Shown: piece by piece, positions 31,963-57,133 of the stretch | Layout of the letters: each line of letters opens with the position of its first letter | How positions within the stretch are numbered: the first letter of the stretch is position 1 | DNA from: Dehalococcoidia bacterium | GTDB taxonomy: Bacteria; Chloroflexota; Dehalococcoidia; Plut-88900 | Direction of reading: 5' to 3' | Length of the DNA stretch: 64,000 nucleotides | Assembly (NCBI GenBank): GCA_965207225.1 | Contig: CBDBLV010000005.1 | Span: forward strand, 1,984,001-2,048,000 | Notes under the pieces: model-generated | What the model saw: only the letters and a program-made list of their open reading frames with translations | Database searches by the model: none | What the model was told of the DNA's origin: nothing | Translations under genes and position numbers: made by a program

Positions 31963-32145
31963 TCACGACTTTGACCACTCAGTCACAAAAGTCCATTTCC
32001 TGTACACCCCCAATACTGCACGAAACGGGCCTCAGATAAGAGGGCATGGATGGTGCCACCATGCGTGGGGTCTTTTTCGGCGTTTGATTTGTTCACACTC
32101 TCCTGCGGCGGCCCAAACCGATAGGCCGCACGAAACCGCACCGAG

Positions 32146-32763: not shown

Positions 32764-32766
32764 CCG

Positions 32767-33747: not shown

Positions 33748-33890
33748 CGACTAGCAAATCCACAGGCGCGGACGAGACAAGCGCCGACCGATACCACGAC
33801 GGAGGCGGAGCGATGTGCATGTGACGGAGCTGACAGACACCAACCGATAGAGACGAGCGGAAGGCTCGAAGAACGAAGGGAGAAAAACGA

Positions 33891-34175: not shown

Positions 34176-34193
34176 GTGAAGGGAGAGAAAGCA

Positions 34194-39612: not shown

Positions 39613-40768
39613 TTGACTTGCTGCACCTCCTAATCGGTTTCCCGACGAAGATGCGTCCGCTATCGGGGTGGGTCAATTCCAAATTAGCGCTACTGGGTCA
39701 GTTTAGAGTTAGCACTAACACAACGCCAACACGGCAGTCCTCGCACGGTCGGGCAGCGGCAAGTCTTTCGCAACCAAGCTCGGAGTGCTCAGGGGATTGA
39801 CGCGCGGCGTCACCGCCTACGTCATCGACCCTGAAGGGGAGTACGCGGACATGGCTCGCGCCGCCGGAGGCAGGGTGCTGTCTCCCGGAGTGGAAGGCCA
39901 GGGCATGAACCCTTTCGTCATCGACCGGGGAGACGACGAGGAGCTGCTCCAGAGGATCGGGAGCCTGAGAAGGCTCATCGAGGTGATGGTGGGTGAGAGT
40001 CTCGGAGCGGAGCGCAGGGCCTCCCTGGACCACGCCCTGGCGGGCTACTACGCCCAGCACCGCGAACGCACAGGCTTCCGCGATTTCTACAAATACCTGG
40101 AAGGGCAGGCCCCGGACATAGCCCACCTGCTGAGGCCCTTCGCCACCGGCAGCCTCCGCAACCTCCTCTCCGACGAGGGGGACGACCTGCTGGGGAGCGA
40201 AGCACTCGTCACCGTCTTCGACCTGCGTCTCCTCGAACCGGAGCTTAGGCCCGCAGCGGCGATGGTCTGCACCGAGACGGTGTGGGCGGCGGCCGCCCAG
40301 AACCCCAAGCCGAGGCTGCTGGTGGTGGACGAGGTGTGGAGCATCATGCAGCACCCCGAGGGCGCGGCCTTCATGGTGTCTATGGCGAAACGCGCCAGGA
40401 AACACCGGCTGGGGCTTCAGTTCATCACCCAGGACGTCCAGGACCTTTTGTCCGAGGACTCGTCGAGGACCATCACCGGCCATTCGGGGAGGGCGCTTCT
40501 CCAGAACGCCGCCTTCAAGCTGCTGTTGCAGCAGGACGCGGCGGCCATAGGCACCGTGGGCGACGCGTTCGACCTGCCCGAAGACCTCCAGCGCTGGCTG
40601 CTGTCGTGTCCCCGTGGGGACGGACTGTTGCTGGCGAAGGGACACCGCTTCCCCGTCCGCATCGAGGCCACCCCGGAGGAAACGGAGGTCATCAAGTGGA
40701 GACCGGGCGGACACCGACAGAGAGGCGAGAACGCAGAAGAGACCCATACGTAGGGAGGAGTAACAGAA

Positions 40769-43300
40769 ATGAAACAGAACCCGATACGCAAACTATTTGG
40801 AAGCGACGACAAGACCCCGGCGCTGCTTGCGGTGACGCCGCCGAGGACGGGCGAGCGGACGTTGCTGGGCGTGGAGAACCTCCTCCAGTCAATCGCGGTG
40901 CCTGAGCCCTTCTCTTTGGAGCTTGCCGGGGACATGGACGGCGTGACGCTGATGGCCCGGTGCATCGACGACCGGGTGGTACGCGGCCAGATCGCCGCCC
41001 ACTACCCCCAGGCCAGGATAGAGAAGGTGGACCCAAACAACGATCCCTTGCGCCTGGGAGACGGCGAGCAGGCGTGGTCGATGACGCTCAGGGCCGACGG
41101 CCCCGAGTACGTCCCCCTGCGCACCTTCCGGGACGACGACCTCCTCGACCCCGGCTCCGACCCTCTGATCGCCCTCATGGGCGCGCTGTCGTCCCTCTAC
41201 GAGGGGGAGCGCGTGGTGGCTCAACTCAAGCTGAACTCCCTCGGCCCCGACTGGTCCCAGCACCACATGGAGAAGGCCCACAAGCGGCCCGGCCAGGAGC
41301 AGCGGGAGCCGTCCTACACCTACCAAACCAAGCCCCTCCAGATGGACGGGGTGACCATGGCCGTCCTCGGCGTCGGCGCTCTCGCAGCCCTCCAAGGCTA
41401 CCTGTGGGTGCAGGACGGCGAGACGTGGAAGACGGTGCTGCTTGGCATCGGAACGGCCCTGGGGCTTGGCATCGGTGGCTGGGCATGGCACCGCTTCAAG
41501 AAGGCGAGGAACCGGGTCGAAGACCCCCTGCTCATCAGGGAGAAGGTCTCCCGCATCGCCTTCGACGCCGAGATACGGGTCACGGCGATCATGCCGGACG
41601 ACACGGGGCGCGAGCGGACCGAGGAGCTCATGAGGAGGGTTGCCGCCGCCTACCGGCACTTCGACAACCCGGCAGGGGCGAGGTTCAAGGTGAGCAAGGT
41701 AAGGCCCGTCGCTCCCGCCCCGGAGAACCTGCATCCCACAGGCCCCGGCCTGTTCGGCAGGCGCAGCGTCCTGGGGGTGCGGGAGGCCGCCTGCCTCTGG
41801 CACCCGCCGGGAGCGGGGAACGAGACGCCGTTGGTGGAGCGGTCTGGCGCGCGGGCGCTCAGCCCGTCGGCGAAGGGAGTCAGGGGCGGTGCGCTGGTGG
41901 GCGACACCACGGCGGGTACCAAGAGGGAGATCAGATTCCCCGACGACCTGCTGCGCCGTCACCACCTCTACGTGGCCCGCACCCGCATGGGCAAGTCCAC
42001 GCTGATGCACCACGTGGTCGCCCACAAGATGCGGGAGAAGGCGGCGGGCAGGGACGAAGACGCCATCGTCGTCATCGACCCCCACACCGACCTGGTGGCG
42101 GGCATCCTCGAACACGTCCCGAAGGAGATAGCCGACAGGGTGAGGCTGATAGACCTGTCGGACGCGAGCCGTTCCCCCGGCGTCAATCTGCTGGACACCC
42201 GCATATTCGCAGACCGCGACCGCACCGCCGACTCGGTGGTGCGGGTGGCCAAGGGCCTCTGGGACCAGTGGGGGCCGAGGATGCAGTCGATCCTGGAACA
42301 GACCGTCAAGACGCTGCACGAGGCCAACGAGCAGATGGAGGCCGAGCAGCAGTACACCATCCTCGACGGCCTGAAGCTGCTCTCGGACGATGAGTTCGCC
42401 AAGCAGGTGCGCAAGAGGGTCTCCGACCCCTACCTGCTGGAGTGGTGGGCCAGGGACTTCGGCAAGTGGGGCCGCCAGTACAAGGCGGAGGCCCTGGCCC
42501 CCGTCCAGACCCGTCTCTCCTACTACGCGTCCTCCAAGCGGGCGAGGGCCATCCTCGGGCAGCGCCGCTCCACCATCGACCTGAGAAGGACCATCCACGA
42601 CGGCGGCGTGCTGCTGGTCTCCACCTCCCAGGGAACGGTGGGCAGGGACGTGGCCGCCCTGGTGGGCGCGTCGCTCCTGAACCTGGTGGACGCCGTGATA
42701 CGGGAGCAGGGAAGTCTATCTCTCAGGGAACGTCGCGGCGCGCTGGTCGTCGTGGACGAGATGCAGTCCATGCCCGGCGTGGACTACGAGTCGATGTTGT
42801 CGGAGCTTGGGAAGTTCGGAGCGTCCTTCGTGCTGGCGACCCAGAGCCTGGCCAAGCTGGACGACCTCTCCCGCACCATGCGCGACACCATCCTCGCCAA
42901 CGTGGGGTGCCTCGCCGTCTTCCAGGTGGCCGGCTCAGACGCCAGGACCCTGGTGTGGGAGCTTGGCAAGGACCGGGTGTCCGAGGACGACATCGTGTCC
43001 CTGCCCGTGCACCACTGCTACGTCCGCGCCACCGTGGGCACCGAGCGGATGCCCGCCTTCTCGATGGAGGTGCGCAAGCCTGAGGAAGGAGACCCATCGG
43101 TCGCCGACCGCATACGTGCAGCTACGCAAGGCTACACCGTCTCGGCCCGCCAGGGAGACTACGCCGACGCCGAGGGCCACGAGAAGGTGGACGAATTTCA
43201 CAAAGGCGTCGAGGCATTGGAGCAGGCCGAACGGGAGGAGAACGACGAGCAGGCGACCGAGAACCACACCGACGAAGAGGACGAGGAGGTCGGAGAATGA
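40769..43300 (+). CDS. Type IV coupling protein (VirD4/TraD-like)
   Basis: 2 TM helices; HLYVARTRMGKST, VIDPH, VVDEMQ, LATQSLA. Confidence 0.8.
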   Translation: MKQNPIRKLFGSDDKTPALLAVTPPRTGERTLLGVENLLQSIAVPEPFSLELAGDMDGVTLMARCIDDRVVRGQIAAHYPQARIEKVDPNNDPLRLGDGEQAWSMTLRADGPEYVPLRTFRDDDLLDPGSDPLIALMGALSSLYEGERVVAQLKLNSLGPDWSQHHMEKAHKRPGQEQREPSYTYQTKPLQMDGVTMAVLGVGALAALQGYLWVQDGETWKTVLLGIGTALGLGIGGWAWHRFKKARNRVEDPLLIREKVSRIAFDAEIRVTAIMPDDTGRERTEELMRRVAAAYRHFDNPAGARFKVSKVRPVAPAPENLHPTGPGLFGRRSVLGVREAACLWHPPGAGNETPLVERSGARALSPSAKGVRGGALVGDTTAGTKREIRFPDDLLRRHHLYVARTRMGKSTLMHHVVAHKMREKAAGRDEDAIVVIDPHTDLVAGILEHVPKEIADRVRLIDLSDASRSPGVNLLDTRIFADRDRTADSVVRVAKGLWDQWGPRMQSILEQTVKTLHEANEQMEAEQQYTILDGLKLLSDDEFAKQVRKRVSDPYLLEWWARDFGKWGRQYKAEALAPVQTRLSYYASSKRARAILGQRRSTIDLRRTIHDGGVLLVSTSQGTVGRDVAALVGASLLNLVDAVIREQGSLSLRERRGALVVVDEMQSMPGVDYESMLSELGKFGASFVLATQSLAKLDDLSRTMRDTILANVGCLAVFQVAGSDARTLVWELGKDRVSEDDIVSLPVHHCYVRATVGTERMPAFSMEVRKPEEGDPSVADRIRAATQGYTVSARQGDYADAEGHEKVDEFHKGVEALEQAEREENDEQATENHTDEEDEEVGE

Positions 43301-44958
43301 GACCCGCGGGACTGGAAGCTCAGATCATCCGCATCCTGGCCGACATGCCCTACCTCAATCGCCGGGAGATGGTCCCGGTCACGGGCCGGTCCAAGGGCGC
43401 GGTCCACGAGGCCGTAGAGAGACTGCAAAATGGCGGCCTCTGCGACTCCGTGCTCCACGCCGTCGATCCCTTTTCCCCTTCCCGCAGGTTCCACCTCACC
43501 GGGGCGGGGCTGCGCAGGCTTGCAGATGAGGACGGGATTTCGCCGGACAACCTGGTGCGTACACACCCCCTCTCCGCCGAGTGGCGGCGAAGCCTGATGG
43601 AGCGCATGGACGCCCTGGCTTCCATATACCACGTCGCATCTCTCGCTTCCGACGTTGCCTACCCCCTGCGTTTCCGCTGGTACCGCTCATCCAAGCTGGA
43701 CGCGGGTATAGAACTTCCCGACGGCAGGACCGTCGGCATCGTGAGGCAGGGACTCACCGCCGACCGCTCGGTCTTCGCCCAGCGCCTCTGGCGACTGAAG
43801 GACGAACCCATGCCCGGAGTCGTCCTCGTCCTCACGATGGACGCCGTCCGTCTCAGGCACGCCCGCAGGATGCTCTCGACCACAGACGTTCCGTCCCTCC
43901 TGGCCGTCGAACGCGAGACGGTCATGGCCGACGTAGACGCCCCGATCTGGACTCCGGCCCAGGTCCACGCAGCCGTGAGCCTGCGCTATTCGTTGGACAG
44001 GACCGACCCCCGCGGCGCGTTTCCGGGGGAGCCGCAGCCCGGACTGGCGTCGGTCCCTGCCGACCTGCCCGTCATGGGAACGGTAGCCGACATGGCCGAC
44101 CACATGCTGCCCGTGACGCTCAGACCCGCCGAGAAGCGCGCCCTCGACCTGGTTTTCGACTGGCCCTGGATCGCCCTCGGCGAACTCGCCGGTCTGTTGG
44201 GCGTCTCGCCCCAGAGGGCTTCCCAGATCGTCAATCCACTGGAGGGCTTCAGCCTCGTCGTCAGGCCCCGCGAAGCGGAGGGACGGCTGGCCCTCACCGA
44301 CCGGGGACTGGCCCTCCTCGCCCGCAGGGACAGGACCTCGGTGGCGGCGGCGAGGAGGAGATTGAGCGTCGCCCCGGAGGACGCCAAAGGGCCTTTCGAG
44401 TGGCGCAACCTCACCGGCAGCAGGAGCCGCCAGCTTCTCAGGAACATCGAGCACACCGAGGCCGTCCACGTCTTCCTGTCCGCGCTTGCGGCCCAGGCCC
44501 GGCACCTGGGCTGGGAGATAGCGCAGCTCGACCCGCCCAGGAGGGCGTCCCGCCACTTCCGCCACGACGAACGGATGCGCGCCGTCTACCCCGACGCCTT
44601 CGGCGTCCTGCGCAGGGGCGAAGAGACGTGGGCCTTCTTCCTGGAGTGGGAGCGAAGGGCCGTTCGGCCCTCGACGATGGCGACGCGGCTCGCCCCCTAT
44701 CTGCGCTACTACTCGTCCCACAGGCCCACCGACGACCACGGGGCCAGACCCGCCGTTCTCATCGTCTTCGACGACGACATCGCCGCCACCCACTTCCTGC
44801 GCGTGGCGAGGGAGCGGATGCAGGCCAGCCGGGTCACGGTCCCCCTGTGGGTCTCCCACAAAGAAGCCATCGACTCCCTGGGACCGCTGGGACGCGCCTG
44901 GCGCACCCCGGACGCCGCCTGGGAGCCGCCCCAGTCCCTGCCGACGGAAGCGAAATGA
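43297..44958 (+). CDS. Replication-relaxation (Replic_Relax) family protein with winged helices
   Basis: EHTEAV...YPDAFG...FFLEWERRA; follows the coupling protein; homolog of 53260-55089. Confidence 0.7.
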   Translation: MRPAGLEAQIIRILADMPYLNRREMVPVTGRSKGAVHEAVERLQNGGLCDSVLHAVDPFSPSRRFHLTGAGLRRLADEDGISPDNLVRTHPLSAEWRRSLMERMDALASIYHVASLASDVAYPLRFRWYRSSKLDAGIELPDGRTVGIVRQGLTADRSVFAQRLWRLKDEPMPGVVLVLTMDAVRLRHARRMLSTTDVPSLLAVERETVMADVDAPIWTPAQVHAAVSLRYSLDRTDPRGAFPGEPQPGLASVPADLPVMGTVADMADHMLPVTLRPAEKRALDLVFDWPWIALGELAGLLGVSPQRASQIVNPLEGFSLVVRPREAEGRLALTDRGLALLARRDRTSVAAARRRLSVAPEDAKGPFEWRNLTGSRSRQLLRNIEHTEAVHVFLSALAAQARHLGWEIAQLDPPRRASRHFRHDERMRAVYPDAFGVLRRGEETWAFFLEWERRAVRPSTMATRLAPYLRYYSSHRPTDDHGARPAVLIVFDDDIAATHFLRVARERMQASRVTVPLWVSHKEAIDSLGPLGRAWRTPDAAWEPPQSLPTEAK

Positions 44959-45280
44959 ACGACGCAGGGAGCGTCGCGAAAACTCCCGCTCAATACCCGA
45001 TAGGAGATGGAAAGCCGATGCGTTCACCGGATAACGATATAGCAAGAGGCCCCCGGAGGAGCGGAGGACGGAGCGCCGTCCGGCTCGACGCGGCGGCCCT
45101 GGGAGACGGCTCACTTCGGTGATCACCTCCCGGAACCGGCCCGCCGGGGTCGATACAGACAGACCCGGTCCCATGTCGAAGTCGGCGCGTGGGGAGCGAC
45201 CGCCCTCCGGTCGCATCCGCCGCCGGATGCACATGGCCTTGGGAACAACAACCCAAAGCTTTATGACATGGAGGATAGAC

Positions 45281-45571
45281 ATGACCAACATCGATCACAT
45301 CGACGGATGGAGCGAGATGGAGCCCCTTCAGGGCGCCGACATGCCCGAGGACTTCCCCCAGCGGCTCGTGCGCCTCAAGGAGGCCAGCGGCCTCTCCTGG
45401 CGCGGCCTGTGCAGGGTCACCGGCATCGACTACAAGCTGCTGCGAAGGTGGCTCAAGGGCTGGGCGCCCAGCGGAGGCTCCATGCTCACCCTGGTCATCT
45501 TCGCCAACCGCATCGGATGCCTTCCGATCCTCCTGGGGGAGGAGCTACGGATGACCCACTTCAGGAGCTAG
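45281..45571 (+). CDS. XRE-type HTH protein
   Basis: FPQRLVRLKEASGLSWRGLCRVTGIDYKLLRRW; RBS GGAGG. Confidence 0.7.
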   Translation: MTNIDHIDGWSEMEPLQGADMPEDFPQRLVRLKEASGLSWRGLCRVTGIDYKLLRRWLKGWAPSGGSMLTLVIFANRIGCLPILLGEELRMTHFRS

Positions 45572-45737
45572 CCGGCACCCCCCGCCGGCGCCCTAACCGG
45601 CGCATCGGCGGCGCGGCGGGGTAGGACACCACAACGCCGCCGGGCGCTCGCACCCATCCGTCCGTGCCCGGCGGCCACCCAATACACCTGTAACGAGAGG
45701 CCAGCGGCCCAACGAACCGCCGCTGAGATTAGGCAAC

Positions 45738-45956
45738 ATGAAAGACACCAATAGAGAAGATACGAGGAACCGGCAAAAGAAGAGGCCGGGGAGGGATGCT
45801 CCCGAGTCATCCTCCGACAGGCCGGTGGAGTCCTATACTCCTCAGCAGCGGAGGACGATACGCAAGGGGCTGCGCATCCTGGCCAAGGTCGCCGTCCGCG
45901 CCCACATGCGCAGGAACGCGGCTCACTCAGAGGATGACGGCGAGGGCAGGCGGTGA
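45738..45956 (+). CDS. Small basic hypothetical protein
   Basis: 72-aa ORF with amphipathic helix IRKGLRILAKVAVRAHM. Confidence 0.5.
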   Translation: MKDTNREDTRNRQKKRPGRDAPESSSDRPVESYTPQQRRTIRKGLRILAKVAVRAHMRRNAAHSEDDGEGRR

Positions 45957-46017
45957 ACGTCCCGCCCAACCTTGTCCCCGGCAGACTCGTTGGAGATGGC
46001 CGCGTGAAGCTAGCATC

Positions 46018-46046
46018 TTGGCATAGCACGAAAGCCGTGCTATTAT
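46018..46046 (+). promoter_or_regulatory. higBA promoter with palindromic operator, probably leaderless
   Basis: TTGGCA-17-TATTAT; ATAGCACG-N5-CGTGCTAT at 46023-46043; ATG begins 7 nt after the -10 box. Confidence 0.7.
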
Positions 46047-46052
46047 GTACTT

Positions 46053-46346
46053 ATGATTGTCTCATTCAGAGACGGCGGTACAGAGGACATCTTCAACGGG
46101 CAATCCACTCAAGCGGCCCTGCGGGCATGTCCCATGCCGATATGGGGAGTGGCTCATCGAAAGCTTGACCAGATCGATTCCGCCTCCGTTCTGGGAGACC
46201 TCAGAATACCTCCCGGCAACCGCCTGGAACGGCTGGCCGGAGATCGAAGCGGGCAACACAGTATTCGCGTCAACGACAGGTATCGAATCTGCTTCACGTG
46301 GACACCTGCCGGACCCGCCGACGTCGAAATCACCGACTATCACTGA
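46053..46346 (+). CDS. higB: HigB toxin (RelE/ParE family)
   Basis: DLRIPPGNRLERLAGDRSGQHSIRVNDRYRICF. Confidence 0.9.
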   Translation: MIVSFRDGGTEDIFNGQSTQAALRACPMPIWGVAHRKLDQIDSASVLGDLRIPPGNRLERLAGDRSGQHSIRVNDRYRICFTWTPAGPADVEITDYH

Positions 46347-46354
46347 AGAGGAGA

Positions 46355-46720
46355 ATGAGCATGGTACGCATTCCCACCGATCGAGAGCCTACGCATCCGG
46401 GCGAGATGCTTCTGACGGAGTTCCTGCTGCCCCTCGGAATGACTCAGCGCGACCTGTCCAATGCCATTCACGTGCCCTATCAGAGGGTCAACGAAGTCGT
46501 CCGAGGGAAGCGGGGGGTCACGCCAAGCACCGCCCTGAGGCTCTCTAGGTTCTTCGGCACTTCGCCCGGCTTTTGGATGAACCTGCAACTCCGTTGGGAC
46601 CTCTACCACGCCGAGCGTTCCGAGGCTGAACAGATCGAGGGCATCCTTCCGCGTGAAATGGTCAGCGCGCTTGGGGAAGACACGGGTTCGATGACGACGA
46701 TGCCGGGTGTTGCAGGCTAG
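46355..46720 (+). CDS. higA: HigA antitoxin
   Basis: PTHPGEML...ALRLSRFFGTSPGFWMNLQ. Confidence 0.9.
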   Translation: MSMVRIPTDREPTHPGEMLLTEFLLPLGMTQRDLSNAIHVPYQRVNEVVRGKRGVTPSTALRLSRFFGTSPGFWMNLQLRWDLYHAERSEAEQIEGILPREMVSALGEDTGSMTTMPGVAG

Positions 46721-46764
46721 TAGTGGCCCACGGGAACGACAGGAAACAGGAGGAGGACTCACAG

Positions 46765-48696
46765 ATGAACAATAGAAGCGACTACACCCCCGTGGCCCTC
46801 TACGCCAGGGTCTCCAGCGACAGACAGGACGTGGACCTGTCCGTGGCCGCACAGCTGCGGGCGCTCAGGGAATACGCCCATAAGAACGACTACGTGGTCG
46901 TCCGCGAGTACGTGGACGAGGCCGAGAGCGGGCGCGTCGCCGACCGCCCGGAGTTCCGCAAGATGATCGACGAGGCCGCCAAGCCCGAGGCCCCGTTTAG
47001 AGAAATCCTTGTCTGGAAATTTAGTAGATTCACCAGAAAGCGCGAGCACGCCGTCGCCTTCAAGTCCATGCTCAGGCGAAAAGGCGTCCGCGTCGTCTCC
47101 ATCACCGAGCAGGCCGACGACACCGCCACCGGCAGGCTCCTTGAGGGAATCATCGAGTCGGTCGATGAGTTTTACTCGGAAAATCTTGCGGAAGAGGTTC
47201 GCCGTGGGATGCGGGAGGCCGCTTCCAGAGGCTTCTGGGTCGCCAGCCGGACGCCCTACGGCTACAACCGCGTCATGGTGCAGGACGGAGCCAAGAAGCG
47301 GCCCACACTGGAGATCGACCCTGACACTGCTCCCGTCGTCAAGCGCATCTTCGACATGGCCGAGTCGGCCACCGGGATGACCGAAATCACCCGCACACTC
47401 AACTCAGAGGGCATCGCCAGCGCCACCGGCAAGCTCTGGTCCAAGAACGGCGTCCACTTCATCCTCAGAAACGAGGTCTACACGGGCACGCTGCTCTGGG
47501 GCACTACAGGGAAGGTCAAGTCCGACCCCGTACGCATAGAGAAGGCGTTCCCCGCCGTCGTCTCCAAGGCCCAATTCAACCGCGTCAAGCGGCTCATGCG
47601 CTCCCGCGCGCCGAAGAGGACGCACCCTCGCAGGGTGGGAAGCTCCTACCTGCTCAGCGGGCTGGTCAGGTGCAAGTCCTGCAACAGGGCGCTCTCAGGC
47701 CAGGACGCCAAGAGCGGCCAGTTCGCCTACTACGTCTGCCAGTCCATCATGAAGCGGGGCAAGAACGCTTGCACGACCCCCAGGCTCAACGCACGACGCT
47801 TCGAGGAGATGGTGGTGGAGAGGATACGGGAGAACGTCCTCACCGAGTCCAACATCACCGAACTGGTCAAGATCGTGGACGAGGAGATGGATGGGGTGGC
47901 AGCGGAGCAGCGGCAGAAGCTGGAGACCATCGAGGCCGAGCTTGATGAGGTCAAGCGCAAGCTGGGCCGCGTCTGGCACCTGGTGGAGAACACCGACCTC
48001 GACATGGCCGACGCCTCGGAACGCATCAGGGAGCACCGGGAGCGTCAACAGTGCCTTGAGGACTCGGCGGCCGAGGCCAGGACCATCCTCTCCCAGCGCA
48101 GGGAGGTTTTGGACGACGTGGAAACCATCGCCACCTATGCCCAGGACATGAGCGAGTTCCTGAAGGAGAGCGAACTGACCGAGCGCAGGGCCTTCATCGA
48201 GTCTTTCGTCAAGGAGATCGTCGTCATGCCCGACAACGCCCTCCTCCGGTACACCATCCCCATGCCTCAGGATGGACCGGTAGGAGGGAAAACCGCCGAG
48301 GAGATGGACCTGAACGGCTCGGTTCTGTCTACCGTCAAAAATGGTGGGCCGGACTGGACGAAATCAAGAACCGATGCCGACTCCCGCCTCACTCCGTCCC
48401 TGGGCATGGGCACCGTGTACGTCAGCGTCGCCTCGTCTTCCACCACCTCGATAGCCTCCACGAAGTTGCGGATGAGGGCCTTGCGTTCGGGGATCGTCCC
48501 CTCCCTCAGGAACTCCCGGAAGTCCGCCACGTACTCCGCTATCTCCTCCGTGTCGGGAAGGGCAACCCGCCGCCGCTCAAGCTGGGTCTCGGCGTCCTCT
48601 CTCGCAGCCTCAAGCTGCTCCTCACGGTGCCGCAGGGACATGATGCGGGGCGACAGCACCTCCAAGGTCAGGTCGCTGGTCTCGATGGCCTCGTAG
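46765..48696 (+). CDS. Large serine integrase A; native part ends at 48350, then reads through antisense to integrase B
   Basis: YARVSS, CKSC Zn ribbon; ...VLSTVKNGG then antisense-derived tail; RBS AGGAGGA. Confidence 0.9.
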   Translation: MNNRSDYTPVALYARVSSDRQDVDLSVAAQLRALREYAHKNDYVVVREYVDEAESGRVADRPEFRKMIDEAAKPEAPFREILVWKFSRFTRKREHAVAFKSMLRRKGVRVVSITEQADDTATGRLLEGIIESVDEFYSENLAEEVRRGMREAASRGFWVASRTPYGYNRVMVQDGAKKRPTLEIDPDTAPVVKRIFDMAESATGMTEITRTLNSEGIASATGKLWSKNGVHFILRNEVYTGTLLWGTTGKVKSDPVRIEKAFPAVVSKAQFNRVKRLMRSRAPKRTHPRRVGSSYLLSGLVRCKSCNRALSGQDAKSGQFAYYVCQSIMKRGKNACTTPRLNARRFEEMVVERIRENVLTESNITELVKIVDEEMDGVAAEQRQKLETIEAELDEVKRKLGRVWHLVENTDLDMADASERIREHRERQQCLEDSAAEARTILSQRREVLDDVETIATYAQDMSEFLKESELTERRAFIESFVKEIVVMPDNALLRYTIPMPQDGPVGGKTAEEMDLNGSVLSTVKNGGPDWTKSRTDADSRLTPSLGMGTVYVSVASSSTTSIASTKLRMRALRSGIVPSLRNSRKSATYSAISSVSGRATRRRSSWVSASSLAASSCSSRCRRDMMRGDSTSKVRSLVSMAS

Positions 48697-49913
48697 AGCT
48701 TCCCCAGACGCCTCTGCACGTCCGATAGCTCCGCCTCGACTGACTCCAGCCTGCCGGACAGCTCTCCAGCCATGGCGTCTATCTCCTCCGCCACCAGTTG
48801 CACCAGCTCCACGATGGTCTCCTCGGTCAGGATGCGCTCCCGTATCTTCTCCACCACGAAGTCCTCGACCTTGGGGGCGTTCAGGTAGCGGGCGCTGCAC
48901 GTCCCCGCTCCCTCCCTGAACAGCGTCCCGCAGATGTAGTAGGCGAACTGCCCGCTCTTGGCTCCCTGGGCCGAGTAGGGCCTGCCGCACACTCCGCACT
49001 TCAGCAGCCCGCTCAGCAGGTACTGGCTCCCCACTCTACCGGGCCTCTGCACCTTCGGCGCACGCTCGCTCATCGCCTGCTGCACCTCGTCGAACAGCTC
49101 CCGCGACACCAGGGCAGGCCACGCTCCCTCCACCCGCACCGGGTCCTGGGCCTTCTCGTTCTTGCCCTTGAGTCCCCATACGGCTGTTCCCGTATAGGCT
49201 TCGTTCCTCAGCACGTAGTGGAGTCCGCCCTTGTACCAGCGCTTCCCCCGGTTGGTGACGCCCCGGTCGTTCAGCTCCCTACACAGCTCCTTGAGGCCGT
49301 GACCGCTCAGGGACTTCTCGAATATCTCCTTCACTACAGGAGCGGTGGCCGGGTCAACCTCAAGTGAGGGGCGCTCCTTCGCCCCGTCCTGTACCTTGAT
49401 CTTCCTGTAGCCGAAGGGGGCCTTGGAGCCGAGGAAGAAGCCTCTCGACGCCGCTTCCCTCATCCCCCTGACAACCTCTTCCGCAAGACTCTCCGAATAG
49501 AATTCATCCACCGACTCGATGATGCCCTCCAGCAGCCTGCCGGTGACGGTGTCGTCGGCCTGCTCGGTGATGGAGATCACCCTGATGCCCTTGCGCCTAA
49601 GCTGGGACTTGAACGCGACGGCGTGCTCCCGCTTGCGGGTGAAGCGCGAGAATTTCCACACCAAGATGACCTCAAAAGGAGCCTGGGGCTTGGAGCCCTC
49701 CTCGATCATCTCCCGGAACTGGGGCCGGTCGGCGACCCTGCCGCTCTCGGCCTCGTCCACGTACTCCCGTGTCACGGAGTAGCCGTTGGCCTTCGCATAT
49801 TCCTTGAGCGCCCGCAGCTGGGCGGACACGGACAGGTCCACGTCCTGCCTGTCGCTGGACACCCTGGCGTAGAGTGCCGCCGCCGTCAGCGGCTGTAGGT
49901 GCTGCTTCTTCAT
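48267..49913 (-). CDS. Large serine integrase B; native part ends ~48345, then reads through antisense to integrase A
   Basis: ~94% aa identity (by eye) to 4772-6340; ends VLDFVQSGPP. Confidence 0.9.
   Translation of the reverse strand: MKKQHLQPLTAAALYARVSSDRQDVDLSVSAQLRALKEYAKANGYSVTREYVDEAESGRVADRPQFREMIEEGSKPQAPFEVILVWKFSRFTRKREHAVAFKSQLRRKGIRVISITEQADDTVTGRLLEGIIESVDEFYSESLAEEVVRGMREAASRGFFLGSKAPFGYRKIKVQDGAKERPSLEVDPATAPVVKEIFEKSLSGHGLKELCRELNDRGVTNRGKRWYKGGLHYVLRNEAYTGTAVWGLKGKNEKAQDPVRVEGAWPALVSRELFDEVQQAMSERAPKVQRPGRVGSQYLLSGLLKCGVCGRPYSAQGAKSGQFAYYICGTLFREGAGTCSARYLNAPKVEDFVVEKIRERILTEETIVELVQLVAEEIDAMAGELSGRLESVEAELSDVQRRLGKLYEAIETSDLTLEVLSPRIMSLRHREEQLEAAREDAETQLERRRVALPDTEEIAEYVADFREFLREGTIPERKALIRNFVEAIEVVEDEATLTYTVPMPRDGVRRESASVLDFVQSGPPFLTVDRTEPFRSISSAVFPPTGPS
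48321..48372. other. Hybrid att junction: A arm + shared core + B arm
   Basis: GGTTCTGTCTACCGTCAAAA-ATGGTGGGCCG-GACTGGACGAAATCAAGAACC. Confidence 0.85.
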
Positions 49914-49956
49914 GTCGTCCTCCTCTGCAATCTTCTGTACTTAGGGGAGGCCAGCC

Positions 49957-51003
49957 TTAGGCCAGCCCCCAGGGGTAAGATTCACCTTTGACATATGAAA
50001 TGGAACCGTCCAACCTCACCGTGATTACGGCGTCGAAGGCCGATAGGTCGCACCCATCCCAGGCTGCGGACTCCGTGCCACCGATAGAATCTACGATGTC
50101 CACTAGTAAGAGGCAGAAGCGAGAGTATTCTGGGCATTCGGCTCGCTTACCTGCTTTGTCGTTGACCTCCTCCTGTAAAACTTCACCGACCTTGTCGTTC
50201 GTTATGAAGTTCCGGAAGACATTGTTCCGTCCCCTAGCGTCCAGTTCTCGATTCACCTCCACATAAGAGACCATGCCAGATTCTACGCGTGCAACCTCAA
50301 CTGCCCATTCCTGCCCTTCCACGAGGAGTTCAAAGTCGGGAAAGCTATTCCCGAGAGGTTCGTATCGATATTTCAGGTCTTCTTGTGAGATGCCGAAACG
50401 CGAACATAGGTCAACACGGAGTGAATGGAGAGCGAAGTGCTCCATGTCTTCCTTGGAAGCATACGCGGGCGAGAATCGAAGCCCGTCCAACCGGTCGCTT
50501 TCTACGAGACGCTGTACGGCAGGGTCCGTTGGGTTGACCAGGCCGATGACGATGCTGTCTTGACTCATGTATTCGTCCTCGAAGAGGTCTACCCTGAACG
50601 CGAAGGTTTCCTTCATGTGGTGAACGCTCAATAGTTTTCGATTGTCGGTAGACAAGGGAAGATGAGACAGGATTGAGGTCAACTTCTCCCGCTTCATTGG
50701 GTGATAACGGATGAGTACGCTATCGCATCCATGGACCCAGTCCATGTCATTCTGGGAGATGATGTGTGACACCTCTTCCCTCAGAAATCCAAGAGTCAGT
50801 TTTCTCCCGTTGGCTGGGGTATGTGGGACAGACTCGGAGAGATCTTTGGATTCTAAGGCGGCCCTCAAAGAGTTCGACGCACGCCGGTACTCATTGACGG
50901 TGCTTCCCTGTTTACCCGGAATCAAGACAAACTGATACCAGGGCAACTTCTGGTATTCAGGGTCTTCCTTCTTCACATACTTGGTCGGAAAGGCGGATGT
51001 CAT
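49957..51003 (-). CDS. Hypothetical protein with C-terminal PD-(D/E)XK-like motif
   Basis: FPDFELLVEGQEWAVEVAR; lower GC than flanks. Confidence 0.65.
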   Translation of the reverse strand: MTSAFPTKYVKKEDPEYQKLPWYQFVLIPGKQGSTVNEYRRASNSLRAALESKDLSESVPHTPANGRKLTLGFLREEVSHIISQNDMDWVHGCDSVLIRYHPMKREKLTSILSHLPLSTDNRKLLSVHHMKETFAFRVDLFEDEYMSQDSIVIGLVNPTDPAVQRLVESDRLDGLRFSPAYASKEDMEHFALHSLRVDLCSRFGISQEDLKYRYEPLGNSFPDFELLVEGQEWAVEVARVESGMVSYVEVNRELDARGRNNVFRNFITNDKVGEVLQEEVNDKAGKRAECPEYSRFCLLLVDIVDSIGGTESAAWDGCDLSAFDAVITVRLDGSISYVKGESYPWGLA

Positions 51004-51049
51004 GAAGTTTTCCTAATCTCGCTGGGGGTTCCGAATCGTGGTTCGCAAC

Positions 51050-51382
51050 TTAACTCACCAGGACGCCTATCGTGGTGCCAAGGGCGCTGGCGATGCGTAC
51101 CAGGGCCGAGGCCGATCCGGGTTTCAGCCCGCGCTCAATCTCGGAGAGGTACCCTGAGGCAAGGCCGGTCCTCTCGGACAACTCCCTCAGGGTCATGCCC
51201 TGGTGGTTCCGAAGCGCCTGGATGGGACCCTTCCCCCGCATGATGTCGAGAGCGACCTCGTGAGGGACGCGCACGCCGTCGTCGGCGTCCTGGGCAGCCA
51301 GCATGTCCTCAAGCTGGCTGTTGCGCTCGATGAGAGCGTCGTACTCCCTTCGAGTCAAGGTTACGGTCTGTTCGCTAGTCAT
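51050..51382 (-). CDS. XRE HTH antitoxin
   Basis: IQALRNHQGMTLRELSERTGLASGYLSEIERG. Confidence 0.85.
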   Translation of the reverse strand: MTSEQTVTLTRREYDALIERNSQLEDMLAAQDADDGVRVPHEVALDIMRGKGPIQALRNHQGMTLRELSERTGLASGYLSEIERGLKPGSASALVRIASALGTTIGVLVS

Positions 51383-51632
51383 AAGCCTCCCTCCTGTGTC
51401 GAACTCTCAGGATTATGAGGGTTGAGGGCTCGCCATGTTCGGTGGCGAAGATGACGCGGTGTTGGCCGACCCGCAACCGGCTGTAGTCACTGCCGGTCAG
51501 CGCAGTCACCTGTCTGGCGAGAGAGGCGGGGTTCTCGGCATATTGCTCAACCTTGCCGATGATGCGCTCCCTGTCCCGCGCGGCGAGACGGCGCATATCC
51601 CTGATGGCCCGCGTCCCCCATTCGATTTGCAT
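51375..51632 (-). CDS. relE: RelE/ParE family toxin
   Basis: IEWGTRAIRDMRRL...RLRVGQHRVIF...VRHRREAY. Confidence 0.85.
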   Translation of the reverse strand: MQIEWGTRAIRDMRRLAARDRERIIGKVEQYAENPASLARQVTALTGSDYSRLRVGQHRVIFATEHGEPSTLIILRVRHRREAYD

Positions 51633-51861
51633 TCCCTCATACACACCCTCTATATTCGCAAATAGAGAGCAGTGAGTCAAGGGCGCACCCACGCGGGCAG
51701 CGTCTCTAGTTTCAGCTAGAGTGATTTCCGAAAGCCGCCTCATCCGCCACTTTCGCAGGACGGTCAGCAACCGGCGCAGTGCTTGAATCTCGTATTTCGC
51801 TCGCTCTGGTTGCATACCCTCACCCCAGGCAGCATTCTCCCTTCAAACTGAGACACTACCC

Positions 51862-52296
51862 TCACGCGACCAGCCGCCACGTGAGCAGACCAACGACCAC
51901 GAGCAGCACGACAACGGCCAGGCCGAGCCTGACGGCCAACCGCCTCATTCGTCTGCGGGCATCGCGCTCCTTCTCGTACTTCTCCTCCATCTCCTCAAGC
52001 GCCTGCCGGTCGGCGGCTGCGGCGTACACCGCCTCGTCCCGCTCCCGCTCCAACGCCTGCGCCCGCCGATCCAGCTCCAGCAGCCTCCGCCCAAGCTTCC
52101 CCTCACGTGCCAGAGCCCGGCGCAGCAGCTCCTCGTCGCTCACCCGGTCCGGCCCCTCCATCCGCACGTTGACCCTCCGGCCCTCCCTGCGCACCTCGAC
52201 CTCTCCCCGCCGGATCATCCGGTCGAGGGTCGAGATGGAGACCTCCATCTCCCGCGCCGCCTCCGCCTTCGCCACCCAGCGCACCCGCTCAGCCAT
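51862..52296 (-). CDS. Excisionase-like HTH + coiled coil + TM protein
   Basis: Paralog of 228-662, same length. Confidence 0.8.
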   Translation of the reverse strand: MAERVRWVAKAEAAREMEVSISTLDRMIRRGEVEVRREGRRVNVRMEGPDRVSDEELLRRALAREGKLGRRLLELDRRAQALERERDEAVYAAAADRQALEEMEEKYEKERDARRRMRRLAVRLGLAVVVLLVVVGLLTWRLVA

Positions 52297-52729
52297 CGCT
52301 CCCGTCCTCGCCCTGCCGCCTGCGCCGCCGCCACCGGCTGAACAGGCGCAGCCCACCGCCCTCGGCGTCGTCTTCCTGCTCCCGCGCCGCCTCCAGGGCC
52401 TCCACGCGCTCCGTCAGGTCATCCACGAGGTTCCTGAGATCATCCACCTCTCTGATCGCCTGCCGCATCCTCCCCTCCAGCCTGTCCAGGGGCGTCGTCC
52501 TCTCCCCATCGGGATCGTCCAGGCCGGCCATGAACCGCTGCACGGCCAGGGTCATCTTGCTCGTCAACCGCTCTTTGCTCAGGGCCAGGGCCACCGTCTT
52601 CCGGTTCACACCCAGCAGGGCCGCCGTCCTGCGCTGACCCTCCCGCTGGACGAGGTACTCCACGACCCACTTCTGGTCGGGTCGCCCGTCTACGGCCTTC
52701 GATTTCATCTTCGACTTCCCAGAGGTCAT
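52289..52729 (-). CDS. HTH/coiled-coil element core protein
   Basis: GQRRTAALLGVNRKTVA; paralog of 2-235. Confidence 0.75.
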   Translation of the reverse strand: MTSGKSKMKSKAVDGRPDQKWVVEYLVQREGQRRTAALLGVNRKTVALALSKERLTSKMTLAVQRFMAGLDDPDGERTTPLDRLEGRMRQAIREVDDLRNLVDDLTERVEALEAAREQEDDAEGGGLRLFSRWRRRRRQGEDGSDG

Positions 52730-52757
52730 CTTCGTCCTCTACCGAGATGGGCCGTTT

Positions 52758-53170
52758 CTGCAATTTTCGGTGGAACCGGCCCTTGACAGCGACCGGTCAC
52801 ATTTTTCGGCCAAACCCCCGAAATGTTGCATAAATCCAAACCTGCGTGGCCCGAAATGTCCGCTCCTGACCATGCCCCCATTTCGCGTCATGCACCCCCA
52901 CCTCAATTCCTGCAATTTCCGGTGGGCCGCCCTGGGCCAAAGACGCCGCCGACGCGCCGGTTTTGCTCCTCATAGACGCTTCAGACCCGCATCCGTACCT
53001 ACATCCCCCATGATCGGCTGACCGGTCAGGGTGGTAAGAGTGCAATTCCGGCGTCTCCGGAGCGCGCCCTAACTTTAGCACAGCTTCTCCCCAACCTGCA
53101 TTATTTGCCGTTGACCGGTCGAGGACGTTGCAGCCCGTTTCGTAGCTGAATCAGGGGAATATGACCGGTC
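52758..53170. repeat. Candidate origin (oriT/oriV) of element B with clustered repeats
   Basis: GACCGGTC x4 (52791, 53020, 53113, 53163); CTGCAATTTYCGGTGG x2 (52758, 52910); motifs shared with A at 52884-52906 and 53138-53157. Confidence 0.55.
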
Positions 53171-53259
53171 TCGGCTATTTCGAGGCCCCGCCGGAGGTAC
53201 AACTTGTACCGTTTTGCGCCCCCCAGACGCCAGGGAGGGCAGACAGCGTTGCATCGACG

Positions 53260-55089
53260 CTATCTATGTCCCCTCCTATTGGACGCCTCTACAGGACGGG
53301 TGGGACGCATCCGGTGGTACAGCGGGTCGTAGACGTAATCGCTCAGCTGGGACAGCCTCAGCCGGGGGGAGGACGGCGCCCACAGGGGGCGCCAGGACTC
53401 CCCCAGTATCCCCGTGGTGCTAAGCACAGGGATGCAGGACACCAGGACGGGCAGCGACATCCGGTGCATCCGGGCGGCGGTGCTCATGTAGGTCTCCTCC
53501 ACCTCCTCACTGTCCACGACGAACAGCGTGACCGGGTACGGCGGCAGGTCCTCTTTGTGCTCGTTGGACCAGTAGTAGTCTTCGTAGGGGTCCAGTCGTG
53601 CCATCACTCCCCTGGGGTGACGGGCTCTGAGTTCGTGCTCAAGGTAGAAGGGCACAGGATGGCCCTCGGCGACAAGATGCCCAACGGCGTCGGGGGCGAT
53701 GGCGGAGCGGCCCCAGTTGTAGGCCCGGTCGGACCTGGCGGTGGGGACAAGCCATACAAGCTCACTGTCGGGATCGGAACGGGTCTCAGATGCAAGCTGC
53801 GAGAGGAACCAGGTGATGCCGTCCGTGTGCCTCGTCTGCCTCGCCCACGTCTCGATACGGTGGCCTACGTGCCGAGGCCGTCCCTCTTTGTCCGTGGTGC
53901 GCTCCGTGCTCCAGATACCCCGCGTGGTGGGCAGCTCGGCCCGGTCCCGGTGGGTCACGTAGCGTATCCCCTCGTCGGACAGCGTGTAGCGAACCTCGCC
54001 CCGTTTGCCCCGGCGCTCCACGAGACCCCAGGTCTTCACCAGGCCGTGCATCATCTGGCTGACCCTTCCCTCGGAGACGCCCAGCCAGGTCGCCAGGTGC
54101 TCGCGGGGGATCATCGGGTGGTCGGTGATGAGGTCCAGCGTGCGCTTCTCAGCGGGGCTGAGGCCGAAGGCCGGCGCAGCCTGCGTCATCCGCTCAGGAT
54201 CGGGCAGGGAAGCTCGCTTACGCTCCGGCGACATGGTGAGGGGTCTTCGTCTCCTGCCAGCCGTGCCCCGGGAGATGACATCTTCCAACGTGTGGAAGAC
54301 GTTCCCAACCCACCCCGTGGTCTCCTGCCAGACCCGGCGGTTTCGTCGTTCTAGGGCGGTCCTGGACTCTACGGCAACGAAGCAGTCACGCAGATAGACC
54401 TGCTCGCAGAACCTCCCCGTCTGCCTCCGCTCCCAGACGCTGGGAACCAGGCTGAGAATGACATCGGGGCGGCGGCTGGAGTCGTAGTGGGCCAAGGCCC
54501 GTAGCCGGTCGCGGAGGGAGCGCCTGCGTAGGGCCAGGCCCTGGCGCACCACGCCGAAGTCCCGCCCGTCGTGGAGGGTGATGGTGGCGTCGAACCGGCC
54601 CCTGCGGTGGAACTCCACGCGGGACCGCAGGCCGTCCGAGCCGGGGGACATCGTGGCGGCGAGACGGTAGACGGCGGCCACGGCGTCCATCCTGCGCAGG
54701 AGCAGCGTCAGCCACTCCCTGGACATGGGGTAGGCCCGCACGAAGTCCGAAAGCGTGTCGTAGTCCAGCAAGTCGGCTGTCTCACGTATGCCCTTCGCCG
54801 TCAGGTAGTATCGTGCGCTTGACGGCAGGTGGACGGTGCCGTGGGTGACTCTCCCGACGATGCCATCGTCCAGCAGGCCGGTCAGGGCGCGATGGACGGT
54901 CGCGTGCGGCTCGCCCAGGACAAGCGCCAGCTCCGTCGATTCGACGAAGGGCATCCGGGCAAGTGCGTCGAGCAGCTGGTGGTCAGTAAGGACCATAGCC
55001 CCACGGTAGCGATTGAGCGTCCTGGTGGGCAACTGGGACGTGTCAGCGCCGCGCTTGGCACCGACAGACTGCTGAGAAGCCTGACTCAC
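53260..55089 (-). CDS. Replication-relaxation (Replic_Relax) family protein
   Basis: RHTDGI...IAPDAVG...FYLEHELRA; colinear homolog of 43297-44958. Confidence 0.7.
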   Translation of the reverse strand: MSQASQQSVGAKRGADTSQLPTRTLNRYRGAMVLTDHQLLDALARMPFVESTELALVLGEPHATVHRALTGLLDDGIVGRVTHGTVHLPSSARYYLTAKGIRETADLLDYDTLSDFVRAYPMSREWLTLLLRRMDAVAAVYRLAATMSPGSDGLRSRVEFHRRGRFDATITLHDGRDFGVVRQGLALRRRSLRDRLRALAHYDSSRRPDVILSLVPSVWERRQTGRFCEQVYLRDCFVAVESRTALERRNRRVWQETTGWVGNVFHTLEDVISRGTAGRRRRPLTMSPERKRASLPDPERMTQAAPAFGLSPAEKRTLDLITDHPMIPREHLATWLGVSEGRVSQMMHGLVKTWGLVERRGKRGEVRYTLSDEGIRYVTHRDRAELPTTRGIWSTERTTDKEGRPRHVGHRIETWARQTRHTDGITWFLSQLASETRSDPDSELVWLVPTARSDRAYNWGRSAIAPDAVGHLVAEGHPVPFYLEHELRARHPRGVMARLDPYEDYYWSNEHKEDLPPYPVTLFVVDSEEVEETYMSTAARMHRMSLPVLVSCIPVLSTTGILGESWRPLWAPSSPRLRLSQLSDYVYDPLYHRMRPTRPVEASNRRGHR

Positions 55090-55171
55090 AAGGAGTCACC
55101 TATGGCTAGTCGTGCTCGTAGCCAGCCCGCGCATGTCGTCTACGCGTCTCTTAGTTGAAGGCTTCTAGACG

Positions 55172-55202
55172 TTGAATCACCGCTACTTGAAGTATATACT
55201 TC
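55172..55202 (+). promoter_or_regulatory. RM operon promoter with perfect 14-bp palindrome over the -10 box
   Basis: TTGAAT-17-TATACT; GAAGTATATACTTC at 55189-55202. Confidence 0.7.
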
Positions 55203-55209
55203 CGAGTAG

Positions 55210-55416
55210 TTGGAAGGGAGGAGCAGCTTGAAAGGTACTGAAAATGGACAACGTGGAACTTTCCTGGTGACGGCGTATAGGTGTCGTTGTGGACACGAGT
55301 GGGTTCCAAAGAAACTGCGCAGCGCGGAACGTCCACGGGTTTGCCCAAAGTGCAAGAGCGCCAACTGGGACAGGCCCTATCAATTTCGGAGGGGAGGTGC
55401 TCCTAGCCAATCATGA
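55210..55416 (+). CDS. Small Zn-ribbon protein, candidate RM controller (start uncertain)
   Basis: YRCRCGHEW...VCPKCKSANWD; stop overlaps the MTase ATG. Confidence 0.65.
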   Translation: MEGRSSLKGTENGQRGTFLVTAYRCRCGHEWVPKKLRSAERPRVCPKCKSANWDRPYQFRRGGAPSQS

Positions 55417-56931: not shown

Positions 56932-57133
56932 ACATATTGGATCAGGTGCCGAAGGTGGATGACCGAAGATGTCGCCGCGCTTTACGCCCAAGCCTAAGTT
57001 CGCAGCCATGACTTCGTGCACCAAGTTTAGGCCACCTTCGTCTCTCCTGGAATCTGGAAGCAACATCCGCCCGACAATGGGCATCCATCCACTTCCACCT
57101 AGCCTTGCCACTATCGGACCAGGAGCCGCCCCA

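Follow-up and report, generated by a model that had tools for sequence, protein, structure and literature searches.

Islands that are driven by a large serine recombinase (LSR) and that reside at tRNA or tmRNA genes are an element kind already known. SCC elements (SCCmec; CcrAB/CcrC) are LSR driven, have the 3′ terminus of some conserved gene as their insertion point, regenerate their site, and assemble into composite tandem arrays, and to our knowledge no hybrid tail-to-tail att sites have been described for them. In Dehalococcoides, islands at ssrA carry the CcrB-like LSR DsiB and occur in tandem arrays, according to the accessible portion of the published account (McMurdie et al. 2011, PMC3146451). 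According to Islander (2014), in the excerpts available, no serine integrase is known that targets tRNA genes (PMC4383910). Ghinet et al. 2011, a source likewise accessible in part, describe such integration as rare and name Mycobacterium AICEs at tRNA-Leu and phage phiRSM at tRNA-Ser (PMC3218068); among tycheposons, 27 of 937 carry an LSR, as given in the available part of the preprint (bioRxiv 10.1101/2020.12.28.424599). In the literature searched, we found no account of a multi-tRNA range or of a tRNA-mimic palindromic attP in the integrase frame, nor of two orientations with recurrent hybrid junctions or of arrays on the scale reported below; an earlier description of any of these is possible.

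How does the locus studied here compare with these systems? The window, by which we mean the whole 64-kb stretch of DNA that was analyzed (C5:1984001-2048000), belongs to a metagenome-derived genome, G000, of 4.03 Mb in 5 contigs with 8.3% contamination. The public runs that contain the sequence are sponge metagenomes, and the host is a sponge-associated member of the Dehalococcoidia. We read positions 48321-48372 as a seam in a tandem array of elements from one LSR family that would use tRNA gene 3′ ends as attB, and we put the probability of this reading at about 0.8. The family is set beside DsiB by description; among the 53 window ORFs scanned, we found no small DsiA-like recombinase, and the Resolvase domain occurred only in three LSRs. 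The tmRNA gene of the genome (C1:198772-199125) adjoins none of the integrase genes of this family, that is, no integration at ssrA was found.

The hybrid site and its integrases

IntA, IntB, and IntB′ (Table 1) all match the Recombinase (PF07508) and Zn_ribbon_recom (PF13408) domains in addition to Resolvase (PF00239; E values of 4e-34, 6e-33, and 7.5e-33, respectively). A YARVSS..RQ block is invariant across 43 aligned relatives, the solved structures nearest to these integrases are LSRs, and the AF2 model of a natural full-length integrase (mean pLDDT, 65.5) has long helices at 361-450 after the ribbon. The domain matches bear out the claim of an earlier, sequence-only reading of this DNA that both integrases at the seam are LSRs. 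Judged by these features, IntA and IntB are LSRs with predicted catalysis; they are 60% identical over 499 residues.

Table 1. Features of the window and of the surrounding array. Positions are window coordinates (negative, upstream of base 1); array sites were ordered from CCACCA sites with arms in C5:1.905-2.050 Mb.
Feature	Position	Strand	Description
tRNA-Met, then element A2	-72003		Array site; int left
Element C	-58104		Array site; int left
Element B″	-39614		Array site; int right
Element A′	-21984		Array site
Element B′	-10988		Array site; start of element B′
IntB′	4772..6339	+	Arm 6313-6337, crossover CC 6338-6339; right end of element B′
herA junction	6339		Array site; herA C-terminal part and 13 kb of chromosomal genes follow
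herA C-terminal part	6344..7945	+	HerA profile positions 83-573 of 576; fused in frame to IntB′
hmaB	8174-11072	+	
hmaC	11801-15202	+	
Element A	19428..48346	+	Array site at 19428; ICE-like, ∼28.9 kb; T4SS pilin, VirB6-like, VirB4/TraC-like, coupling protein, relaxase, HTH, IntA
A far arm	19434-19453	+	Then in-frame 9-codon tail VFELRLGSL and stop, 19454-19483; crossover dinucleotide 19427-19428
IS21-family insertion	37577-39612		Inside element A
IntA, large serine recombinase	46723..48345	+	541 aa to crossover; ORF continues to 48696; PF00239, PF07508, PF13408
Hybrid att junction	48321..48372	.	A int-proximal arm, core TGGTGGGCC, B int-proximal arm
IntB, large serine recombinase	48345..49913	-	523 aa to crossover; ORF continues to 48267
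Element B	48347..59313	-	Array site at 48346; IME-like, ∼11 kb; IntB, HTH, ParE-like toxin, relaxase, DNA methylase, GmrSD_C/Excalibur protein
B far arm	59288-59311	-	Then in-frame tail FQLRFRLEV and stop, 59287-59258; crossover dinucleotide 59313-59314
herA N-terminal part	59315..59596	-	Array site at 59313; PADLOC HerA profile positions 7-68 of 576 (ORF 59258-59596)
SIR2 gene of SIR2-HerA pair	59532..60781	-	Two overlapping ORFs, profile positions 2-188 and 190-391 of 399
hmaA	60920..63916	-	PADLOC

In what follows, the int-proximal arm is the arm adjoining the integrase gene, and the far arm is the other, int-distal one. Inspection of 48321-48372 revealed GGTTCT at the start, AGAACC at the end, and TGGTGGGCC at mid-site, with the central dinucleotide GG at 48346-48347. 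A repeat search of the window paired the A arm (48320-48340) with 19434-19454 as a perfect 21-nt inverted repeat and the B arm (48349-48372) with 59288-59311 as a 24-nt inverted repeat with an 88% match. Rebuilt from their half-sites, attP-A and attP-B are both 52 bp long; the arms of attP-A are 20 bp and perfect, and those of attP-B are 21 bp and match at 19 of 21 positions. The sequence-only reading had proposed two such attP sites bounded by GGTTCT and AGAACC, with one core and crossover position, integrase genes on opposite sides of the core, and overlapping read-through ORFs. The att sequences, the inverted repeats, and the ORFs themselves (46723..48696 on the plus strand and 48267..49913 on the minus strand, overlapping by 430 nt) agree with it on each of these points.

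The geometry (52-bp sites, inverted half-sites, CC at the center) is that of the short att sites of LSRs, which are 40 to 50 bp long and have a nonpalindromic central dinucleotide. By our own arithmetic, a perfect 21-nt inverted pair is expected ∼5e-4 times per 64 kb by chance, the arms recur ∼50 times across the genome, and the B-arm pattern gave 12 matches in G000 versus 0 with a reversed control pattern; a chance pairing of the A and B arms is therefore excluded. The nucleotide sequences of intB′ and intB are 89% identical, and the homology ends exactly at the core. Within its att borders, element A has matches to TrbL/VirB6, T4SS_pilin, TraC, TraG/TrwB-like, and Replic_Relax together with its integrase, as an ICE does. 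This copy may be nontransferring, since its VirB4/TraC-like gene is broken by the IS21-family genes.

tRNA 3′ ends as the probable target

No tRNA was found within the 64-kb window, and the link to tRNA genes is thus drawn from the rest of the genome. A tblastn search revealed ∼33 LSR genes of the family in G000 (two of them partial), 20 of which are A-like (61 to 100% identity to IntA) and 13 B-type (81 to 100% identity to IntB). Of 49 tRNAs predicted by ARAGORN, seven (Ile-GAT, Ala-TGC, Lys-CTT, Val-GAC, Val-TAC, Met-CAT, and Gln-TTG) have an int-proximal arm and a convergent integrase gene directly after CCA. The core of the hybrid site had been likened to a tRNA 3′ end, for example, that of tRNA-Ile, and the likeness proved exact: tRNA-Ile(GAT) (C1:177682-177758) ends in GGCCCACCA, directly followed by an identical A arm and a 98%-identical IntA copy. 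The same GGCCCACCA recurs at 7 of 9 array junctions, with the two herA junctions retaining only part of it.

Other Dehalococcoidia revealed the same arrangement. Among 80 IntA-like loci, 31 abut a convergent tRNA (Ala, 8; Val, 7; Ile, 7; Lys, 5; Glu, Met, Ser, and Gln, 1 each), 20 face a B-type int-proximal arm in the same tail-to-tail junction, 1 faces an A-type arm, and the remaining 28, which include truncated loci, are of another kind or unclear. One further Met locus was counted by eye, beyond the 31. Of 401 genomes in the class, 31 carry the B far-arm pattern, and the control gave 0 matches; at 10 of 30 loci from other genomes, a genuine tRNA stands immediately before the B-type far arm. 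The elements thus have the borders of tRNA islands, with an intact tRNA 3′ end at one border and the displaced end repeated at the far border; their integrases are serine recombinases, not the tyrosine integrases of such islands.

We propose that each element carries a ∼52-bp near-palindromic attP centered on GGC-CC-ACCA, with crossover at the CC corresponding to tRNA positions 71-72. The inner 12 to 13 bp of attP resemble the T arm and acceptor strand, and its outer ends, GGTTCT, are a copy of the tRNA T-loop motif GGTTCGA set 6 bp farther out. Integration would rebuild the tRNA end from the element and leave the core again at the far end, so that further elements could pile up. In A-type elements, the integrase gene lies on the tRNA side and reads toward the tRNA; in B-type elements, it lies on the far side and reads away. 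A B-type element on the tRNA side of an A-type element would therefore bring the integrase genes tail to tail at a site with two attP arms, such as 48321-48372. Entry would take place mostly at the tRNA-bearing site, irrespective of the right-hand sequence.

What might such integrases recognize? The consensus of 36 tRNA half-sites has GGTTCGA at −19 to −13 from the crossover CC, and 28 P arms have GGTTCT at −25 to −20; GTC at −12 to −10 and GG at −3 to −2 are common to both. In the LSR model based on LI integrase, as laid out in the accessible part of the source, the recombinase domain sits on the same inner positions and the zinc-ribbon motif lies ∼5 bp farther inward on attB (PMC3783163). 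The motif shift found here appears to resemble this attB/attP model, but it amounts to 6 bp versus 5 bp. Only the tRNA side of attB is conserved, with downstream flanks varying by locus; this would account for the many tRNAs used and for foreign arms being tolerated. Classical LSR rules allow attP × attB recombination only. Our main reading is weakened here, as entry at a site with a foreign attP arm as its other half would go beyond these rules.

The side of the core that bears the integrase gene changed at least 4 times (5 in a per-group count) on a FastTree tree of 104 integrases, from which 5 badly extracted rows were dropped and in which 4 rows had no call. Shuffling gave a mean of ∼20 changes, and 0 of 500 shuffles were as low as the observed value. 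The B clade corresponds to one orientation flip, and others fall within the A clade at 70 to 80% identity to IntA. With near-perfect palindromic arms around a shared core, the core could flip easily relative to the integrase gene.

The array, its junctions, and a probable inversion at herA

The window lies within an array headed by a tRNA-Met (3′ end GGGCCCACCA) ∼72 kb upstream of base 1. Its series of CCACCA sites with arms supports the earlier suggestion that the elements stack at one hotspot. A B-type arm preceded by a tRNA had also been predicted upstream of base 1. The arm is there, at −10988, and it is preceded by GGCCCACCA; the core at that position, however, belongs to the far arm of the A-type element A′, and the tRNA is the tRNA-Met at −72 kb. 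The predicted junction of a tRNA followed by a B arm is present in other genomes, at the 10 of 30 loci given above, but precedes 0 of the 12 B far arms in G000, and B-type elements may thus prefer a site regenerated at the end of another element.

The flank at the array end (18647-19423, left of 19427) abuts tRNA-Ala in the relatives G007 and G005, tRNA-Val in G001, and a tRNA-Ala fragment in G008. Judged by these matches, the DNA left of 19427 is the true tRNA-downstream flank, and its position at different tRNAs in relatives indicates that flanks and tRNAs were re-paired between arrays more than once. We counted ∼50 att-like sites genome-wide, in clusters that span 443 kb or ∼11% of the assembly, a rough figure that includes trapped host DNA.

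The junctions were read from the assembled contigs of G000. An A-type int-proximal arm adjoins 7 of its 13 B-type int-proximal arms; of the others, 4 meet unique DNA, 1 meets an A-like far arm, and 1 meets herA. The neighbors of the 12 B far arms are A-type far arms in 6 cases, C-type far arms in 3, and an A-like int arm, herA, and unique DNA in 1 case each. Both kinds of hybrid junction fit attP-A × attP-B products and stepwise entry at a core-retaining site alike. Could the hybrid site then have formed in one step, by recombination of free attP-A with free attP-B, with the cointegrate entering the tRNA site as a unit? The hybrid junctions (int-int, 7; far-far, 6 between A and B and 3 between C and B) are the exact reciprocal products of that reaction, and the core and dinucleotide are common to both att sites. 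We nevertheless consider this origin unlikely: sequential integration yields the same junctions, the head-to-tail junctions between A and C in arrays would be left unexplained, and attP-attP pairing is not known for LSRs, as far as the accessible part of the source goes (PMC3783163).

It also seems improbable that B and A make up one composite element with integrases at both flanks or in the middle, in which the hybrid site would be a working attP-like site, a mixed IntA/IntB complex would act on it, and both parts would move and excise only jointly. Such an element would account for the repeated occurrence of the tail-to-tail junction, at 20 of 80 loci across many species and 7 times in G000, and for an intact core flanked by two attP-type arms. 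A-type elements, however, stand alone at tRNAs (7 in G000 and 31 of 80 elsewhere), as do B arms in 10 of 30 loci, and the subtype and cargo of the partners vary among hybrid junctions. The earlier suggestion that the hybrid site makes the excision of A and B interdependent is one that we would offer as conjecture.

A mis-join of near-identical repeats would be a very improbable source of the junction or of the inversion described below. The 5 contigs, the 8.3% contamination, the ∼33 related integrase genes, and contig graphs that branch at the arms could all favor such an error; the same junction type, however, is found in single-contig genomes of other species, and intB and intB′ are 11% divergent, so that long reads could tell them apart. 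The fold of 48321-48372 (−29.3 kcal/mol; z, −4.4) could speak for a chance repeat or for no more than a palindromic hairpin, such as a terminator that serves two convergent genes. This reading is refuted by arms that recur genome-wide and adjoin tRNA ends, by the tRNA-then-B-arm loci elsewhere, by homology of the B copies that stops exactly at the core, and by a search that found no terminator-like site at 48321-48372.

In the tandem array at a tRNA 3′ end, which we prefer as the reading of this locus, two junctions lie in herA. The halves of herA are on opposite strands, 53 kb apart, with SIR2 upstream of the N-terminal part, and hmaA is on the strand opposite to hmaB and hmaC. PADLOC models for the SIR2-HerA system were matched, but the genes are not an adjacent intact pair, with herA split and SIR2 in two ORFs. 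The herA junctions (6338-6340 and 59312-59314) share only CCA, including the geometric center CC of both palindromes, and the crossover is therefore confined to those 3 nt. The herA pseudosite keeps GTTC at −18 to −15, GG at −3 to −2, and CCA. Reversing 6339-48346 or 6339-59313 restores one herA and a co-directional series of hmaA, SIR2, herA, hmaB, HEPN, and hmaC; the same reversal places A at the end of the tRNA-Met array, beside its tRNA-type flank. These data suggest that an inversion of 42 to 53 kb with endpoints at att sites split herA and separated the Hma genes. No close herA ortholog was found in 40 relatives, the best match being 34% identical over part of the protein.

Two routes could have produced this inversion. 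In the first, a free B would have entered herA, and intB′ and intB, or their att sites, would later have recombined. In the second, B′ and B would have stood in tandem, and their joint, a complete attP, would have recombined with an inverted pseudo-attB in herA. We favor the second, with odds slightly better than even, because it needs only a canonical LSR reaction, and we rate the first at rather less than even. A joint between two B-type elements as invoked for the second route was found nowhere else in G000, with none of the other 12 B-type int-proximal arms having a B far arm next to it. A homologous-recombination crossover within intB and intB′ was sought as the cause of the inversion, and gene conversion between intB′ and intB″ was found instead: the two are identical over nt 1-1502 and have 10 differences in the last 67 nt, which shows recent conversion between copies. 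This observation is consistent with either route.

Contigs of public runs, which resolve neither excision products nor the joins of a repeat-rich assembly, yielded no usable sign of circles, empty sites, or inversion isomers. They revealed two further details. One run contains a short joint of 59307 to 48354 with 13 other letters (depth, 12.8), which resembles the site of a related element with the core reversed. Contig X1, from another study, matches 59312-61000 at ∼98%, and the match ends exactly at the crossover; depth over element B there is 0 at 55146-57281 and at most ∼1 up to 58883, a faint hint that element B is absent from X1.

An integrase frame across attP, and comparison with known systems

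A short in-frame tail and a stop lie beyond every far arm. The B tail follows the pattern F-x-L-x-F/L-x-L-D/E-V/L at 12 of 12 far arms in G000, and across the class it is nine codons long in 28 of 30 loci and six codons long in the other 2. The pattern is V/I-F-E-L/M-W/R-L/M-G and onward for A tails and F-R-W-E-V-x-x for C-type far-arm tails. Although the nucleotides differ, the pattern and the place of the stop are kept, indicating selection at the peptide level. From the layout of the frames, the tail is predicted to become part of the integrase only where the int-proximal arm meets the far arm, namely, in a circle or a same-type tandem. In integrated copies, the integrase frame continues for 3 to 116 unrelated residues; within the window, the addition is 26 residues for IntB and 116 for IntA, the latter read antisense through intB. 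The pLDDT of the tail in the AF2 model of the natural full-length integrase is 26 to 34.

One potential explanation is that a self-contained, tRNA-mimicking attP lies inside the frame of its own integrase with the tail as a sensor of the integration state, and that junctions with two attP arms are recombination competent and arrays self-shuffling. We hold this proposal as tentative and on balance doubtful. Full-length integrase, with a last ∼19 residues that include the conserved 9-residue tail, would come from the circle or a same-type tandem joint only. Upon integration, the tail would be lost and junk would take its place, and the tail would bias the enzyme toward integration or excision. 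Junctions with two attP arms that remain competent may give rise to inversions of tens of kilobases and to broken host defense genes. We infer that the attP-split frame may have a regulatory role.

Why would such a family matter? tRNA genes are usually deemed the preserve of tyrosine integrases, and published serine cases are few. A whole LSR family that uses the near-universal T arm and CCA end of many tRNAs through a 52-bp attP would show how an RNA-gene target can be read, and its members are candidates for landing-pad-free insertion tools. With arrays on this scale in a symbiont assembly and an att-bounded inversion that appears to have broken a SIR2-HerA and Hma defense cluster, these elements would reshape the host chromosome. 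As for directionality, an integrase frame that runs through attP suggests that its control could be simple.

The Dehalococcoides ssrA islands, as described in the available parts of their account, likewise belong to the Dehalococcoidia, with an ∼540-aa LSR beside attL that is oriented against the target RNA gene, and are alike in target, the 3′ part of a tRNA-like gene, with tandem islands separated by 3′-end repeats. Their target is ssrA, with crossover in the T loop and a repeat of 20 bp, whereas the elements here use ordinary tRNA genes of at least 8 isoacceptor types, with crossover in the acceptor stem and a repeat of at most 9 bp. Two orientation classes and an integrase ORF crossing attP are found here, unlike in the ssrA islands as that partial account presents them. 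SCC elements are alike in their LSR, gene-3′-end insertion, and tandem composites (partly from PMC3146451, accessible in part). Their target is rlmH and Ccr acts as a pair, whereas the target here is tRNA.

AICEs, phiRSM, and LSR-bearing tycheposons share with this family a serine recombinase at a tRNA gene; in the portions of those sources available, each case involves one tRNA, whereas here one family uses many tRNAs, its arrays take up ∼11% of the assembly, and it has the attP and ORF features given above. The tRNA islands of tyrosine integrases, in the available excerpts of Islander (PMC4383910), are alike in the restored 3′ end, the displaced fragment, and tandem arrays; they differ in enzyme family, and attP here is a short simple palindrome without arm-type sites. 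The closest published logic is the integration-dependent immunity of mycobacteriophages, in which, according to the accessible part of the source, attP lies within a coding gene, attB overlaps a tRNA, and the C terminus is altered upon integration (PMC9262239). The likeness is in the attP within a coding gene and the attB at a tRNA; the gene split there is a repressor and the enzyme is a tyrosine integrase, whereas here the serine integrase itself is split.

Integrase ends and a copy of IntA

Beyond each far arm, the att arm at the element end opposite the integrase gene, we found an in-frame tail that is conserved, runs for ∼9 codons and ends in a stop (window 59258-59311 and 19434-19483, and also the 30 far-arm loci of B type fetched across the class, L101-L130). 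The B-type tail was exactly 9 codons long in 28/30 of these class loci. Because the tail and its stop are conserved and in frame past each far arm, the integrase gene is complete only when read across a joined attP.

A 98% copy of IntA, the large serine recombinase of element A, adjoins GGCCCACCA at C4:892600-892790 of the source genome (G000), and the sequence just before GGCCCACCA there cannot be recognised as a tRNA or tmRNA.

A split defence cluster and the cargo of A and B

An inversion whose ends are both att crossovers in the window splits herA and sets the Hma genes apart. With SIR2 and hmaB each broken into two overlapping ORFs, the SIR2-HerA/Hma defence cluster looks decayed. The tRNA-like pseudo-site inside herA shares the 9-mer CGTCCAGTC with the int-proximal arm of B; it lies on the herA side (window 6340-6365, minus-strand reading), 5 bp further from the crossover than in the B arm.

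Features of the split defence cluster and of element A
Feature	Window coordinates	Strand	Remark
herA (SIR2-HerA pair)	6344-7945 and 59315-59596	+ and -	split by inversion
Hma genes	8174-15202 and 60920-63916	+ and -	set apart by same inversion
hmaB	8174-8560 and 8502-11072		two overlapping ORFs
SIR2	59532-60781		two overlapping ORFs
VirB4/TraC-like gene halves	36209-37486 and 39785-40753		element A; broken by istA/istB
IS21-family istA/istB	37577-39612		element A; within VirB4/TraC-like gene

B', another B-type member of the array, holds a second copy of this IS, which lies before the start of the window at roughly -3000 to -1000. Element B encodes a 707-aa ORF with fn3, GmrSD_C, and Excalibur domains, within which lie three 258-nt tandem repeats (window 57854-58627).

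Exchange among array members and flanks

The integrase genes intB'' (G000 C5:1960450-1962018) and intB' (window 4772-6340) are identical over nt 1-1502, after which 10 of the final 67 nt differ; outside these genes the two elements are ∼95% alike. This pattern points to recent gene conversion among members of the array.

The glyoxalase/ArsR flank has a second copy, 88% identical, at G000 C5:1851300-1852400. After it come the decayed remains of two arms, one an A-type far arm plus tail and the other a B-type arm. In four relatives (G007, G008, G005, and G001; loci L002-L005), one chromosomal flank adjoins a tRNA-Ala in two, a 19-nt tRNA-Ala fragment in one, and a tRNA-Val in one. Judged from these differing neighbours, flanks and tRNAs have repeatedly been re-paired within the genus.
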